A stretch of DNA of 64,000 bases from NCBI GenBank assembly GCA_040302145.1, contig JBEORG010000021.1; one strand, given 5' to 3'. The notes under the pieces were generated by a model. That model was not told where the DNA came from. It saw only the letters and a program-made list of their open reading frames with translations, and ran no database searches. This document shows positions 38,847 to 44,227 of the stretch, in pieces (within the stretch, counting starts at the first letter, position 1; the number at the start of each line of letters is the position of its first letter). A program made the position numbers and the translations under genes. The DNA comes from Spirillospora sp. NPDC127506 (GTDB lineage: Bacteria; Actinomycetota; Actinomycetes; Streptosporangiales; Streptosporangiaceae).

Positions 38847-39794
38847 TCAGCGGCGCCCTGCGGCCCGCGCGGGATCGCGCTCGCGCGCCCAGGCGACGGT
38901 CTCGGCGATCCCCTCGGCGAGGCCCACCTTCGGCTCCCAGCCGAGCACCTCCCGCGTCGCCCGCGGGTCGACGGCCATCGCGGGCAGGTCCCCCAGCCGG
39001 GGCGGCGCGAACTCCGGGTCGTCGGGCGCGCCCGCCGCCTCGGCGACCAGCGTGTGCAGGTCGCGGTCGGTCGTCTGCACGCCGGTGCCGACGTTGAAGC
39101 GGCGCCCGCCGCCCGCGTCCCCGGCCGCGCGGGCGAACGCGTCCACGACGTCCAGGACGTAGACGTAGTCGCGGGTCTGCGTGCCGTCGCCGTAGACCTT
39201 GGTCGGGCGGCCGGACAGCAGCGCGTCGGTGAAGATGGAGACGACGCCGGCCTCGCCCTCGGGGGTCTGCCGGGGCCCGTAGACGTTCGCCAGCGTCAGG
39301 GTCGTGAAGTCGATGCCGTGCAGCCGCCGGTACATGCCCGCGTAGACCTCGCCGGAGACCTTGGAGGCCGCGTACGGCGACGCGGGCCGCAGCTCGGCGT
39401 CGGCGGGGACGGGCAGCGCGTCCGGCACCCCGTACACCGCGCAGCTGGAGGTGAACACCACCTTCCGCCCGCCGGCCGCGCGCGCGGCCTCCAGCACGTT
39501 GGCGGTGCCCAGCACGTTGGTGCGGGCGTCGGCGAGCGGGTCGGAGACGCTGGCGCGGACGCTGACCTGCGCGGCGAGATGGCAGATCACCTCGGGCCGC
39601 CGCACCGCCGCCTTCTCCACCAGCGCCGGGTCGGCGACGTCCATCTCCCACAGCTCCACGCCGGGGCGGACGTTCGCGCCGGACGTCATGTCGTCCACGC
39701 CGATGACCTCGTGGCCGTCGGCGAGGAGCCGGTCGACGAGATGGGATCCGATGAATCCGGCCGCGCCGGTGACGAGTGCGAGCACCCGCAGCAC
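38847..39794 (-). CDS. NAD-dependent epimerase/dehydratase (UDP-glucose 4-epimerase-like SDR)
   Basis: VTGAAGFIGSHLVDRLL (Rossmann), YAASK (YxxxK), ~315 aa. Confidence 0.85.
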   Translation of the reverse strand: MLRVLALVTGAAGFIGSHLVDRLLADGHEVIGVDDMTSGANVRPGVELWEMDVADPALVEKAAVRRPEVICHLAAQVSVRASVSDPLADARTNVLGTANVLEAARAAGGRKVVFTSSCAVYGVPDALPVPADAELRPASPYAASKVSGEVYAGMYRRLHGIDFTTLTLANVYGPRQTPEGEAGVVSIFTDALLSGRPTKVYGDGTQTRDYVYVLDVVDAFARAAGDAGGGRRFNVGTGVQTTDRDLHTLVAEAAGAPDDPEFAPPRLGDLPAMAVDPRATREVLGWEPKVGLAEGIAETVAWARERDPARAAGRR

Positions 39795-39828
39795 GATACC
39801 GAAGGGGCGGCGGGCCGGAGCGGCGCCG

Positions 39829-39915
39829 CGGCCGCTCCCGGTCGGCCGCTCCCGGTCGGCCGCTCCCGGTCGGCCGCTCCCGGTCGGCCGCTCCCGGTCG
39901 GCCGCTCCCGGCCAG
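39829..39915. repeat. Tandem 15-bp repeat (ggccgctcccggtcg) x ~5.5 in the rsrA-epimerase intergenic region
   Basis: Read directly: gccgctcccggtcg repeated head-to-tail. In one frame it translates as (SRSAAPGRPLPVGR)n, but it lies between two well-defined genes. Confidence 0.8.
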
Positions 39916-39939
39916 GCGCTCGCGGCCGAGCGCCCGGGG

Positions 39940-40236
39940 TCAGGCGCTCTCGGTCTTCTCCGCGCCGCCCGTGGCCTTGATCTCGCCGCAGATCTCCTCG
40001 ATCCGGCCGAGCACCTTGGACCGCAGGTCGCTCGGCGCCTGCTCGCAGCCGCAGGACTTGTTCACGAGCTTCTTGACGGCCTCTTCGAGCCCGTACTCGC
40101 GCAGGCACGGCCCGCACTCGTCGAGGTGCTGCCGGACCTCGCTGCAGCCGCCCTGGTCGAGCTCGCCGTCGAGATAGGTGTAGACGCGGGCCAGGACCTC
40201 GTCGCACGGCGTTTCGTGGTGGTTGCCGCAGCTCAT
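39940..40236 (-). CDS. rsrA: Anti-sigma factor RsrA (ZAS family, redox-sensing)
   Basis: 98 aa. HxxxCxxC ZAS motif ([12 protein letters not shown]) plus additional Cys (CGC). ATGA-coupled to sigR. Confidence 0.85.
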
Positions 40237-40997
40237 GATGACCCCCTGCCGGCGCGGGTGAGCCCGCGGTCCTCAGCGTAGTCCTCCAGCATGCCGCGGA
40301 GCTGGCGCCGGCCGCGGTGCAGGCGGGACATCACCGTACCGATGGGCGTGCCCATGATCTCGGCGATCTCCTTGTAGGCGAAGCCCTCGACGTCGGCGAG
40401 GTACACGGCGATGCGGAACTCCTCGGGGAGGTCCTGCAGCGCCCGCTTCACGTCGCTGTCGGGCAGGTGCTCCAGCGCCTCGGCCTCCGCGGACTTCAGC
40501 CCGCTCGAGGTGTGCGACTCGGCGCGGTGGATCTGCCAGTCCTCGATGTCCTCGGTGGCGGCCTGCTGCGGCTGGCGCTGCTTCTTGCGGTAGGAGTTGA
40601 TGAACGTGTTGGTCAGGATGCGGTAGAGCCACGCCTTGAGGTTCGTGCCCTCCTTGAACTGGTGGAAGGACGCGAACGCCTTGGCGAAGGTCTCCTGGAC
40701 GAGGTCCTCGGCGTCGGCCGGGTTGCGCGTCATGCGCAGCGCGGCCGAGTACAGCTGGTCCAAGAACGGGAGCACGTCGCGCTGGAACCGCTCCTGGCGC
40801 TGCTCCACGGTCTCCGTGGTGCCCGGTACCTGACCCACCCCCTCGGCTGTGGCGCCCTTGGCCCCGACTGGGCCGGCGGCGTCGTACCCCACAGACGATA
40901 TCGGTCCGCGCGGCCTTCCGATGCGGACGGGTGCGCGTGCGTCGCCCCGGATCGCCGTCCCGGCTCTCCGCTGCCCATCGGCGACGGCTGTGGTCAT
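40233..40997 (-). CDS. sigR: ECF sigma factor SigR/SigH (thiol-oxidative stress); long ORF from ATG 40997 with probable shorter isoform start near 40838 (VGQVPGTTE...)
   Basis: [36 protein letters not shown]... (region 2) and a region 4 HTH ([15 protein letters not shown]). A GGAAT-N18-GTT promoter lies just upstream of the 40997 ATG. Confidence 0.85.
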
Positions 40998-41034
40998 CGG
41001 CTTGCACCTCCGTGTTGCTCGCTGTGAGACGGTG

Positions 41035-41060
41035 CAACACCGGAACGGCCCCGCCGATTC
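41035..41060 (-). promoter_or_regulatory. SigR/SigH-type promoter (GGAAT-N18-GTT) upstream of sigR
   Basis: The reverse complement reads GGGAATcggcggggccgttccggtGTTgca. This is an exact match to the sigmaR consensus with an 18-nt spacer, ~40 nt upstream of the 40997 ATG. Confidence 0.7.
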
Positions 41061-41117
41061 CCGGAGCGGCCCGCCGGCGGGTCACTCAGGGTGATGACCG
41101 GCCCCGGACGGGGAAGG

Positions 41118-41951
41118 ATGTCACATACACGCGGAGAACAGGAGCAATCGGTGCACTCCGTGCCTTCGGCGCGACCTTCCGAGCCCACCATCGCCAGCCT
41201 GCGCGACGGCTCCGGAGCCGCGTCCGGGGAGTCCCTGGCGCGCTACTGGACGTTCTACCGGGCCGTGGCCGACGCGCAGCTGGCCCGCTGGCTGCCGCGC
41301 AGGCCGTCGCGGGTGCTGGACATCTCGGGCGGGCACGGGCGCAGCGCCGGCCACGCCGCCGCGGCCGGCCACGCGGTGCTGGAGGTGCGCGACCCCGACC
41401 GCGCCGGCCGCTCGGCCCGGGACGAGACCCGCCGCCCCGTGCGGGGCACGATCCCGCTGGTGGGCGACTCTGGAACGCTCTCCTACCTGGTCGACGCCTC
41501 GGTGGACGCCGTGGTCGCGGAGAACCGGGTGCTGTCCCGGCACCTGGCCACCGAGGCCACCATCGCCGAGATCGCCCGCGTGCTGCGCCCCGGCGGCCGC
41601 GTCCTGCTCTGCGTCGACTCCCTCACCCTCGGGATGGCGCTGCTCGCCGAGCGGAACTACTGGGCGCACCTGTCGGACGTGCCGAGCGCCGAGGTCGTCC
41701 TCGTCCCCTGGCCGGACGGGACGATCACGCGCTCGTTCTCGTCCCACCAGCTGCGCGAGCTGCTCGGCGACGCCGGCCTTGAGGTCGAGTGGATCAGGCC
41801 GCGCACCGTGCTGTCGCCCTCGACGGTCGAGCACGTGCTGGCCGAGTCGCCCCGCGCCCTGCCCCGCCTCGTCCGCACCGAGCTGAACGCCCCGCAGGGG
41901 GACGAGTCGCTGGGCGTCCACCTCCTGGCGAGCGCACGCCGCGCGGGCTAG
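41118..41951 (+). CDS. Putative SAM-dependent methyltransferase-like protein
   Basis: 277-286 aa. RVLDISGGHGRSAGHAA (motif I-like), RPGGRVLLCVD. The start is uncertain (ATG 41091/41118). Confidence 0.5.
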   Translation: MSHTRGEQEQSVHSVPSARPSEPTIASLRDGSGAASGESLARYWTFYRAVADAQLARWLPRRPSRVLDISGGHGRSAGHAAAAGHAVLEVRDPDRAGRSARDETRRPVRGTIPLVGDSGTLSYLVDASVDAVVAENRVLSRHLATEATIAEIARVLRPGGRVLLCVDSLTLGMALLAERNYWAHLSDVPSAEVVLVPWPDGTITRSFSSHQLRELLGDAGLEVEWIRPRTVLSPSTVEHVLAESPRALPRLVRTELNAPQGDESLGVHLLASARRAG

Positions 41952-42289
41952 CGCCTGCGGTCGCGGCGCGCCTGGCAGGTGATGCAGCGGGCGGCGTCGG
42001 GACGGGCCTCCAGGCGGCCCTCCGGGACCGCCTCACCGCAGTCGACGCACCGGCCGTAGGCGCCGGCGTCGATGCGCTCCAGGGCGGCGGCCACCCCGCC
42101 GCGATGGCGCTCCAGGGATTCCAGCGCCGCCTCCACGCGGTCGTGCGCGGTGAGGCCGGCGCCGGCGTCCGCCGCGGAATTGTCGTGCTCGGGCGTCTCG
42201 CCGCGGAGAATGGCGATGGACCGCTCCAGATCGGCGAGCATGACCTCAAGGCGGGAACGGGCGGCGGCGATGTCCACGATGGTGCGCAC
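41948..42289 (-). CDS. DksA/TraR-family C4-type zinc-finger protein
   Basis: 113 aa. CVDCGEAV...CITCQ, a four-Cys zinc finger after a coiled-coil region. Confidence 0.75.
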   Translation of the reverse strand: MRTIVDIAAARSRLEVMLADLERSIAILRGETPEHDNSAADAGAGLTAHDRVEAALESLERHRGGVAAALERIDAGAYGRCVDCGEAVPEGRLEARPDAARCITCQARRDRRR

Positions 42290-42312: not shown

Positions 42313-43107
42313 TCAGAACAAACTGTCGGACGGATTACCCGGACTATCCCCAGAAATCAGCGGTTCTATGAGTTCGGGCCCGTTGTTTCGCACGCTGTTG
42401 ACCGCCTTTGACACCGGGTAGGCGTCCATTGTCCCGGCCATGGCGGGGACCAGGAGCCCGCGCACCCGCTCGGTGTCGGTGAGTTCCGGATCGAGCCAGG
42501 CGTCCCAGCGGTCCGGTTCGACGATCATCGGCATCCGGTCGTGGATGCGGCCGAGGTCGTCCGGCGCCTCGGTGGTGATGACGGTGCACGTCCACACCCA
42601 CTCGTCCTCCGGCGACTTCCACAACTCGTACAGCCCGGCCATCGCCATGACGGAGCCGTCGTTCGGGCGGATGAAATAGGGCTGCTTCTGCGGCTTCTTC
42701 TTGGCCTTCTTCTCGCCTTCGGCCGGGTCCGGCGCGTCGCCCTGGTTCTGGAGCGTGTACCACTCGAAATAGCCGTCGGCCGGCAGCAGGCAGCGGCGGC
42801 GGGCGAACGCCCGCCGGTAGGACGGCTTCTCGTGCACGGTCTCGAACCGGGCGTTGATCATGCGCGACCCGATGGACAGGTCCTTGGCCCAGGAGGGGAC
42901 GAGCCCCCAGCGCACCGTCCGCAGCTGCCGGACGGCGGGCTCCTCCTCCGGGGCGTCCTTCGGGCGCCGGTTCAGGACGACCGGAACCTGCTTCGTCGGG
43001 GCGACGTTGTAGTCAGGCTGGAGATCCCCGTCGACGGCGTCGAGCTGCACCTGGAACTCGTCCAGCAGCTCCTGACGCGCGCGGGTGGTGGCATAGCGTC
43101 CGCACAT
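42313..43107 (-). CDS. SOS-response-associated peptidase (SRAP/YedK/HMCES family), abasic-site processing protein
   Basis: Begins MCGRY (catalytic Cys2) and has conserved WGLVPSW and H...FEW motifs. The ATG is at 43107 within the longer ORF. Confidence 0.85.
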   Translation of the reverse strand: MCGRYATTRARQELLDEFQVQLDAVDGDLQPDYNVAPTKQVPVVLNRRPKDAPEEEPAVRQLRTVRWGLVPSWAKDLSIGSRMINARFETVHEKPSYRRAFARRRCLLPADGYFEWYTLQNQGDAPDPAEGEKKAKKKPQKQPYFIRPNDGSVMAMAGLYELWKSPEDEWVWTCTVITTEAPDDLGRIHDRMPMIVEPDRWDAWLDPELTDTERVRGLLVPAMAGTMDAYPVSKAVNSVRNNGPELIEPLISGDSPGNPSDSLF

Positions 43108-43183
43108 GCGTCCCATGACACCACGAGCCTGGGACACCGGCCGGTCGCGCTTGAGGTGCGGCGCGCTGGGCATGGAGAGGGTC

Positions 43184-44227
43184 ATGCGACCCTTCACGAC
43201 CCTGGCCCGCCCCCTCGTGGCGGCGCCCTACATCATGACCGGCCTGGACGCCATCCGCGATCCGCGGGAGCGCGCCGAGCAGGTCGGCCCGGCCGTCAAG
43301 CCGGTCGCCGACCGGCTCGACTGGATGCCGAAGGACCCGGAGACCCTCGTCCGCATCGAGGGCGCGCTGAGCCTCGGCACGGGCGCGCTGCTGCTGACCG
43401 GCAAGCTCCGCCGGCTGACGACGCTGATGCTCGCCGTGGAGCTGATCCCCGCGCTGGCGACCGAGCACCGCTACTGGACCGAGAGCGACCCCGAGCGCCG
43501 CGCCGATGAGCGCTCCCACCTGCTGAAGAACGCCGCGCTGTTCGGCGCGCTGCTGATGTCGGCGACCGAGCCGCGCCGCCCGCCCCGCACGGCGGAGCTG
43601 CGGCGCGCGATGCGCGAGTCGCAGATCAGGACCGGCGCCGAGGCCAAGGCGATGCGCAGGGAGGCGGCCGCCACGCTGCGGGACGCCCGCCGGGAGGCCG
43701 CGCGGCAGATCCGGATCGCCCGCGCGGAGGGCGGGCGCAAGGCCGCCCAGAAGGCCGCGAAGGCGGCCAGGGCGAAGCCGGCCGCCAAGCGGGGCGGCGG
43801 CCTGTTCAAGGCGGGCAAGGCCGGCGGCGGGCTCTTCAAGGCCGGAAAGGCCGGCAAGGGCGGGCTGTTCAAAGCCGGAAAGGCGGGCAAGGGCGGCCTG
43901 TTCAAGAGCGCCAAGGCGGGCGGCGTGCTGGGCAAGGCCGGTGCCGCGGGCACGTTCAAGGCGGGCAAGGCGACCGGCGCGCTGAAGGGCCGCCTCGGGT
44001 CCCGCGGCCGGTCCAGGGGCGGCCTGTTCTCCCAGGGCGGCAACCCGGACATCCGCGAGATGGCGGCGCTCCGCGCCGGGCGGGCCGCGAAGGCCGGCAA
44101 GGCCGCGGGCAAGACCGTGAAGGCGGGGACGGCCACCCAGGCGGCGAAGGCGGTGAAGGCCGGCCGGACCGTGAAGGCGGGCACGGCGGCCCAGGCGGGG
44201 AAGGTCAGGGAGGCGGTCAAGCGCTGA
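43184..44227 (+). CDS. DoxX-family membrane protein fused to a Lys/Gly/Ala-rich repetitive C-terminal tail
   Basis: The N-terminal ~150 aa are DoxX-like 4-TM. The C-terminus has (GGLFKAGKAGK)x4 and many AGKA/KAGT repeats, histone-H1/HU-tail-like. Confidence 0.6.
   Translation: MRPFTTLARPLVAAPYIMTGLDAIRDPRERAEQVGPAVKPVADRLDWMPKDPETLVRIEGALSLGTGALLLTGKLRRLTTLMLAVELIPALATEHRYWTESDPERRADERSHLLKNAALFGALLMSATEPRRPPRTAELRRAMRESQIRTGAEAKAMRREAAATLRDARREAARQIRIARAEGGRKAAQKAAKAARAKPAAKRGGGLFKAGKAGGGLFKAGKAGKGGLFKAGKAGKGGLFKSAKAGGVLGKAGAAGTFKAGKATGALKGRLGSRGRSRGGLFSQGGNPDIREMAALRAGRAAKAGKAAGKTVKAGTATQAAKAVKAGRTVKAGTAAQAGKVREAVKR
43790..43925 (+). repeat. 33-bp tandem repeat x4 (encoding GGLFKAGKAGK) inside the DoxX-tail gene
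   Basis: ggcctgttcaaggcgggcaaggccggcggc... repeated with minor variation. Confidence 0.75.

Follow-up and report, generated by a model that had tools for sequence, protein, structure and literature searches.

The sigR-rsrA locus in a stretch of 64,000 nucleotides from Spirillospora sp. NPDC127506 (GenBank assembly GCA_040302145.1, contig JBEORG010000021.1; the whole stretch analysed is called the window) is predicted, with a probability of about 0.8, to be a thiol-oxidative-stress operon under the layered control known from Streptomyces, in which SigR reads one of its own promoters (p2) and is made as a long and a short isoform. This circuit has been demonstrated experimentally for sigmaR of Streptomyces coelicolor and SigH of M. 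smegmatis, and is an ordinary conserved feature here; the only mildly novel point is what appears to be a conserved non-canonical GTH start codon (GTC, GTT or GTA) for the short isoform outside Streptomyces, which in this lineage would be GTA. The elements of sigR on which the prediction is built are these:

41035..41062, minus strand: predicted sigRp2-type autoregulatory promoter, with -35 GGAAT at 41061-41057 and -10 GTT at 41038-41036.
41005..41011, minus strand: Shine-Dalgarno (SD) sequence GGAGGTG of the long isoform, read from the sequence, with a 7-nt spacer to ATG 40997.
40233..40997, minus strand: long sigR open reading frame (ORF) of 254 amino acids, the SigR'-type isoform, taken from the ORF list and opened by ATG 40997.
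40830..40997, minus strand: N-terminal extension, rich in Arg, Ala, Gly and Pro and predicted to be disordered, 56 codons before GTA.
40890..40904, minus strand: nucleotide-invariant block CCGATATCGTCTGTG, candidate -10 region of sigRp1, containing the TAnnnT hexamer TATCGT at 40900-40895.
40836..40843, minus strand: internal ribosome-binding site (RBS) AGGGGGTG of the short isoform, the last three bases of which are GTG 40838-40836.
40827..40829, minus strand: GTA, candidate non-canonical codon at which the stable short SigR (198 amino acids) would start, 6 nt after the RBS.

The long ORF scores 358.6 bits against TIGR02947 SigH_actino (cutoff 251.55) in a match that begins at residue 60, the next gene scores 104.5 bits against TIGR03988 RsrA (cutoff 62.5) and has the zinc motif HxxxCxxC in the form HLDECGPC, and SigR of the window is 92-94% identical to SigR proteins of Actinomadura (A. 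geliboluensis, A. madurae and others). The locus is thus an ECF12 SigR/SigH sigma factor gene with the gene of an RsrA-type ZAS anti-sigma factor. In the long frame GTG 40838 is codon 54, so that the extension is 53 amino acids long if counted to this GTG and 56 if counted to the likelier GTA 40829; an earlier note on this DNA, which had ATG 40997 adding about 54 amino acids, was correct about the in-frame extension, and its length is adjusted here. Public annotations of the orthologs are inconsistent, with forms of 250-255, 201 and 208-220 amino acids, and long forms of 243-261 amino acids are annotated in many genomes of Actinomadura and Spirillospora.

Read on the minus strand, positions 41062-41035 are GGGAATC-N16-TGTTG, in which GGAAT (41061-41057) is followed after 18 nt by GTT (41038-41036). 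The earlier note had described this motif correctly as an exact GGAAT-N18-GTT, had placed it one base off (41035-41060), and had set it about 40 nt upstream of ATG 40997, in good agreement with the 38 nt measured from GTT to ATG. The published consensus of SigR promoters is GGGAAT(G/C)-16 nt-(C/G)GTTG (quoted in PMC3489674), from which the promoter of the window deviates at one position, a T that is also found in 75 of 84 orthologous sigRp2 sites. Scanning of both strands found no other exact GGAAT-N18-GTT in the 64 kb, and one-mismatch variants were at chance level (13 versus 10.6 expected), i.e. no further SigR-type promoters were detected in the window. Shuffled windows contained a mean of 0.24 exact matches, with at least one in 21 of 100 shuffles; a single exact match anywhere in 64 kb is therefore unremarkable, and what counts is its location and strand relative to sigR, the chance of an exact match on the correct strand within about 100 nt upstream of sigR being 0.24 x 100/128000, or approximately 2e-4. 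Transcription from p2 would start a few nucleotides downstream of the -10 element, at approximately 41030, and homology to the S. coelicolor promoter, together with the literature, suggests that it would depend on SigR.

The comparison was based on 80 sigR loci from species-representative genomes (4 Actinomadura, 2 Actinocorallia, 3 Nocardiopsis, Sporichthya, several metagenome-assembled genomes (MAGs) and many Streptomyces), to which were added 26 loci of Thermomonosporaceae found by exact-protein look-up and five metagenome contigs of the sigR type; the latter came from a scan with the RBS pattern that gave 19 matches, five of them sigR and the others unrelated chance matches. GGAAT-N17-19-GTT is present upstream of sigR in 79 of the 80 genome loci (with the N18 spacing in 77), in all 26 additional loci of Thermomonosporaceae, and in all three metagenome contigs with sufficient upstream sequence. 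The consensus of 84 distinct sites, ccGGGAAT(G/C)-N15-cTGTTG, fits the site of the window. Almost without exception, the sigR loci retrieved from Actinomadura, Actinocorallia, Thermomonospora, Nocardiopsis, Streptomyces and related MAGs have kept the promoter, the SD-led ATG and the in-frame extension as a set, and the earlier suggestion that the autoregulatory two-isoform arrangement is conserved is supported by finding the same layout in essentially all of the approximately 105 loci.

Two variations of the upstream region were also noticed. In several Actinomadura (A. napierensis, A. violacea, A. miaoliensis and relatives) the p2 leader is lengthened by some 70-90 nt of GC-rich sequence inserted between the -10 element of sigRp2 and the SD sequence, to about 108-128 nt versus about 38 nt without it; this was noted at 1390-1470 in L002 and L003, and in L104 and L118-L125. 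In Streptomyces loci with the GTT start variant (L021, L046, L053, L054), GGAATCTTGAGGAGGTGGGTCCGGTT constitutes a second exact GGAAT-N18-GTT at about -200 nt from the anchor, which spans the internal RBS and takes the start codon as its GTT; it is clade-specific and probably coincidental.

Translation of the extension is supported by the behavior of its reading frame. When the upstream ATG was located solely by its SD sequence downstream of the motif, blind to frame, all 85 SD-led ATGs were in frame with sigR without an intervening stop codon, across 30 distinct spacer lengths of 210-426 nt, and the first ATG in any frame was in frame with sigR in 71 of 80 loci. In each of the 14 sequences of Thermomonosporaceae that were compared, 7-8 nt separate the SD sequence from the ATG, and the same 14 sequences keep the N-terminus MTTAVA(D/E) through synonymous changes (GTC/GTT in a 7:7 ratio, ACC/ACG, ACA/ACG and GAT/GAC), so that codons 2-7 change only synonymously apart from D/E at residue 7; the N-terminus is under selection at the protein level. 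Indels in the extension are of 3 and 15 nt, and all length differences are multiples of three. Conservation of the frame and the synonymous-only N-terminus together speak in favor of translation of the extension as a part of SigR. An AlphaFold model, whose overall pLDDT of 58.5 from a shallow alignment limits its use to the call of disorder in the tail, gives residues 1-58 a pLDDT below 50 and no secondary structure, with the sigma2 and sigma4 helices at about 70-80, and is compatible with a flexible tail.

Within the extension, the block CCGATATCGTCTGTG is invariant in five species of Actinomadura, even at third codon positions and in the rare codons ATA and TCT, and aligns with CTATCCTCC of Streptomyces and GTATTCTCC of MAGs. 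The core common to all three is the TAnnnT hexamer, TATCGT in the window aligning with TATCCT in Streptomyces. The block lies at -67 to -53 from GTG, with the hexamer at -62 to -57, and thus inside the interval of -125 to -34 treated as the sigRp1 region by Yoo et al. 2016 (PMC4921905). By homology and from this literature, TATCGT at 40900-40895 is a candidate -10 element and probably marks the position of sigRp1. The conserved peptides RGPISS and EGVGQV, considered as functional motifs of the extension, were rejected as such, since they coincide with nucleotide-invariant signals and contain rare codons.

GTG 40838 is the start codon called by annotation pipelines and adopted by the earlier note, but the arrangement around it resembles that of S. 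coelicolor, in which the annotated GTG lies inside the RBS AGGAGGTG and the true start codon is a GTC two codons downstream (PMC5472188). Stop codons introduced in the S. coelicolor gene had no effect on SigR at the two codons following GTG and abolished SigR at the fourth codon, in agreement with Edman degradation (PMC5472188). Initiation at this GTC, a weak start codon, is repressed by IF3, and its replacement by ATG, GTG or TTG results in overproduction of SigR relative to RsrA (PMC5472188). Among Streptomyces the start codon is GTC in 32 of 34 cases and GTT in 2 of 34 (Feeney et al. 2017, PMC5472188). In the window, positions 40843-40827 of the minus strand read AGGGGGTG GGT CAG GTA, which matches S. 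coelicolor in layout and spacing; AGGGGGTG differs from AGGAGGTG by one A-to-G change, and the fourth codon, at the same position and spacing, is GTA instead of the GTC or GTT of Feeney 2017. Since the GTG belongs to the RBS, and judging from the homologous GTC start of S. coelicolor, GTG 40838 is probably not where the short form begins; the start is probably GTA 40829, giving a protein of 198 amino acids and an extension of 56, and the N-terminus near 40838 proposed in the earlier note is probably three codons early, as the GTG inside the conserved RBS has an S. coelicolor equivalent that is not a start codon. GTG 40808 (V of TETVEQ) was rejected as a start codon of the short form, the equivalent codon being GTT or GTC in several relatives.

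The pattern of codons across the loci points in the same direction. The RBS 9-mer is conserved in 75 loci, and in all 75 the second codon is GGT, which makes up 15% of the glycine codons of the same genes. The fourth codon in these loci is GTC in 58, GTT in 9, GTA in 8 and GTG in none, versus 47% GTG among the valine codons of the same genes. Such invariance of GGT (75/75) and GTH (75/75) despite codon usage implies a constraint at the nucleotide level. GTA is found in the window and in five of the surveyed loci (L001-L003, L005, L006), in A. madurae, A. pelletieri, A. atramentaria and A. geliboluensis, in all 15 further distinct regions of Actinomadura, and in 4 of the 5 metagenome matches to sigR, i.e. 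in nearly all loci of Actinomadura and Actinocorallia; other states of the fourth codon are GTT in A. parmotrematis and GTC in A. craniellae and T. echinospora. It is an even bet that Actinomadura and Actinocorallia initiate their stable short SigR at GTA. Feeney et al. 2017 reported no evidence that genera other than Streptomyces use the non-canonical start (PMC5472188), the literature search turned up no later paper extending it beyond Streptomyces, and GTA as a natural bacterial start codon is undocumented in the literature searched.

Several observations weigh against the model of an autoregulatory promoter, a translated extension and a non-canonical short-form start. The conservation counts are from loci that are phylogenetically non-independent, and 5 of 90 loci have no SD-led ATG under the criteria used. 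The extension carries no coding-type signal at third codon positions, its GC contents at the first, second and third positions being 0.74/0.71/0.79 versus 0.67/0.42/0.97 for the core, and DNA or RNA signals that overlap it account for part of its amino-acid conservation (RGPISS, EGVGQV). In one assembly of A. madurae (L107:470-760), a single-G deletion inside the extension (CCGGCC to CCGCC), relative to identical sister strains (L108, L112), breaks the long frame; the internal RBS and the short form would be unaffected, and the deletion is either an error of assembly or sequencing or a strain-specific natural knockout of SigR'. No -35 element or AT-rich site of the WblC type could be assigned to the candidate p1, and a generic scan for sigma-70 promoters and terminators over 39800-41200 gave no match, so that neither p1 nor the promoter of rsrA (rsrAp) was independently confirmed. 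A. miaoliensis (L104:611-1444) has a canonical GTG at the position of the short-form start, where a 1-nt deletion after AGGGGGTG creates an in-frame GTG 5 nt after the RBS; this GTG is followed by an insertion of about 25 amino acids before the conserved TETVEQ, making the start region unlike that of all other loci. As for composition, the extension of Streptomyces is equally atypical (0.64/0.67/0.72 versus 0.68/0.47/0.90 for the core, in 66 loci), and because that extension has been validated experimentally, the anomaly is a property of the element and not evidence against translation; frame plots and third-position GC content were accordingly set aside as an uninformative test of coding.

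Several explanations compete with this model. It is possible, though doubtful, that the promoter is real and the short form nevertheless starts at GTG 40838, giving 201 amino acids and making GTA an internal valine codon. GTG is one of the canonical start codons, a length of 201 amino acids is given in many database entries in keeping with the start assumed by NCBI annotation and by the earlier note, and A. miaoliensis shows that an in-frame GTG can occur near the RBS; however, as the 3' end of a conserved RBS (AGGGGGTG here, AGGAGGTG in Streptomyces) GTG 40838 would be left with no spacer, the stop-codon scan and Edman data of S. coelicolor place the start at the fourth codon, and the absence of GTG at that codon and the fixation of GGT at codon 2 in the 75 loci both speak for a constraint on the nucleotides. 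Another explanation leaves both starts alone and has the promoter read mainly by a paralogous ECF sigma factor of overlapping specificity, so that SigR would not regulate itself. Genomes of Actinomadura encode many ECF sigma factors, the -35/-10 motif of the ECF12 type is common to close paralogs, and cross-talk between SigE and SigH in mycobacteria offers a parallel. Such an explanation is unlikely, given that the motif has been co-inherited with sigR across at least five genera and that sigRp2 transcripts of S. coelicolor vanish in a sigR mutant (PMC4921905).

A further explanation is that the p2 transcript exists but its upstream ATG is unproductive, the extension being an open 5' leader and the short isoform the only one made. 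The missing third-position signature, the overlap of much of the conserved peptide with DNA signals, and the ease with which frames stay open in DNA of 72% GC would all suit a leader, and yet a leader would hardly keep every one of 85 SD-led ATGs in frame over 30 length classes, maintain a strong SD sequence at ideal spacing in every sequence of Thermomonosporaceae, and confine change in the first seven codons to synonymous sites, and the Streptomyces extension is translated despite its equally odd composition; this explanation is very unlikely. That the GGAAT-N18-GTT motif is a functionless chance occurrence, as the 21% of shuffled windows holding at least one exact match might suggest, is effectively refuted by the comparative data, in which approximately 105 loci agree in its position, strand and spacing with respect to sigR and the flanking consensus bases match too.

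Under the preferred model, in which SigR reads p2 and both isoforms are made, RsrA would keep SigR inactive in reducing conditions. Upon oxidation of RsrA, free SigR would recognize its own promoter, GGGAAT-N18-GTTG at 41062-41035, to produce a longer mRNA whose strong SD sequence and ATG 40997 would direct synthesis of the 254-amino-acid SigR' with its disordered tail of 56 amino acids, closing a positive feedback loop. The examples of S. coelicolor and M. smegmatis suggest that this tail would make SigR' a short-lived substrate of Clp, so that the response would be shut off afterwards. Transcription from p1 within the extension (candidate -10 TATCGT, 40900-40895) would give a shorter mRNA on which only the internal RBS AGGGGGTG is usable, and initiation at the weak GTA 40829 would supply a low level of stable SigR of 198 amino acids, RsrA remaining in excess.

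The closest known system is sigRp2/SigR' of S. coelicolor, where the unstable isoform was described by Kim et al. 2009, according to the accounts in PMC4921905, PMC5472188 and PMC7826278; a long unstable isoform of SigH has likewise been reported for M. smegmatis, according to PMC7826278, which cites Kim 2009. The window and S. coelicolor share a promoter of the SigR type followed by an SD-led in-frame ATG, an extension of about 55 amino acids (55-58 there, 53-56 here) with an internal second promoter region, a candidate one in the window, and an rsrA gene directly downstream with an ATGA overlap. They differ in that the window comes from another genus and order (Streptosporangiales), the distance from GTT to ATG is 38 nt in the window versus about 58 nt in most Streptomyces loci, and the extension is unrelated in sequence to that of Streptomyces except in the parts overlapping p1 and the RBS, its N-terminus being MTTAVAD versus MGSTxCP. 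Instability and dependence on Clp are features of S. coelicolor that may be extended to the window by analogy and from the literature; the one indirect hint of them in the window is the predicted disorder of residues 1-58. The likeness to the GTC start of Streptomyces (Feeney 2017) lies in the order of an extended RBS with a terminal GTG, the codon GGT, a codon that varies and, 6 nt past the RBS, a valine codon GTN, and the differences are GTA versus GTC/GTT and AGGGGGTG versus AGGAGGTG. The SigH-RshA systems of M. smegmatis and M. tuberculosis, compared by their description in the literature, also consist of an ECF12 sigma factor and a ZAS anti-sigma factor and have an autoregulated promoter of the GGAA type, but the annotated start of mycobacterial sigH is a canonical ATG (PMC5472188). 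The sigRp1 promoter that depends on WblC/WhiB7 (Yoo et al. 2016, PMC4921905) resembles the window in having, within the extension and about as far from the RBS, a -10-like TAnnnT; unlike it, the window has no recognizable AT-rich tract beside a -35 element, and control by WblC therefore cannot be inferred for the window.

The remaining features of the locus and its neighborhood are as follows:

39940..40236, minus strand: rsrA, zinc-binding anti-sigma factor (TIGR03988, 104.5 bits), the ATG of which overlaps the sigR stop codon (ATGA).
40242..40247, minus strand: RBS of rsrA, AGGGGG, 5 nt before ATG 40236, read from the sequence.
40354..40382, minus strand: counterpart of rsrAp, TTCGCC-N17-GATCAT, by comparison with Feeney 2017 Table S1.
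38847-39794, minus strand: NAD-dependent epimerase/dehydratase gene, downstream of rsrA.
41948-42289, minus strand: DksA/TraR-type C4 zinc-finger protein of 113 amino acids, upstream neighbor.
42313-43197, minus strand: protein of 294 amino acids, with NCBIfam PRK09951 (labelled 'hypothetical protein') as its sole match.

The rsrAp promoter has been given a -35 element of TTGCC/TTCGC and a -10 element of CATCAT (Feeney 2017 Table S1); its putative counterpart in the window is weak, non-independent evidence because it sits in a strongly conserved coding stretch. The ATGA overlap of sigR and rsrA is not genus-wide, as several species (L001, L002, L003, L101, L102, L103, L106) have spacers of 60-140 nt and a separate RBS, and the spacer of A. 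pelletieri consists of three tandem copies of gagcgtggtttcgac; the varying junction implies that translational coupling differs between species. The gene order methyltransferase - sigR - rsrA - epimerase is kept across Actinomadura and Thermomonospora. In the gap between the rsrA stop codon and the epimerase gene of the window, positions 39829-39911 are a perfect 14-nt tandem repeat of CGGCCGCTCCCGGT in about 5.9 copies, with degenerate copies extending to 39953, which is absent from the same intergenic region of 11 related loci of Actinomadura and Thermomonospora and appears to be strain-specific. Adjacent to it, at 39790-39830, a conserved GGTATCGTGCTG...GTGCTCGCACTCGTCACCGGC, found likewise in 10 relatives, lies upstream of and extends into the GTG start of the epimerase gene, and holds another TATCGT hexamer that is possibly part of this gene's promoter. 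No SigR-type promoter was found before the DksA/TraR-type gene (41948-42289) or the gene of the 294-amino-acid protein (42313-43197).

The main finding is a textbook circuit identified again in another genus of actinomycetes, which will not surprise specialists. For annotation, the start codons called in Actinomadura records are split, and probably none of them gives the true short form of 198 amino acids. Conservation of the element RBS-GTG GGT NNN GTH well beyond Streptomyces would turn one documented GTC start into a family of variants with a wobble base other than G, and the variants of the fourth codon would be a natural test of how the strength of a start codon sets the ratio of sigma to anti-sigma factor. 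If the GTA start is real, the weak, IF3-sensitive start of sigR would be ancestral to Streptomycetales and Streptosporangiales and not a peculiarity of Streptomyces, with selection against G in the wobble position and drift confined to C, T and A.

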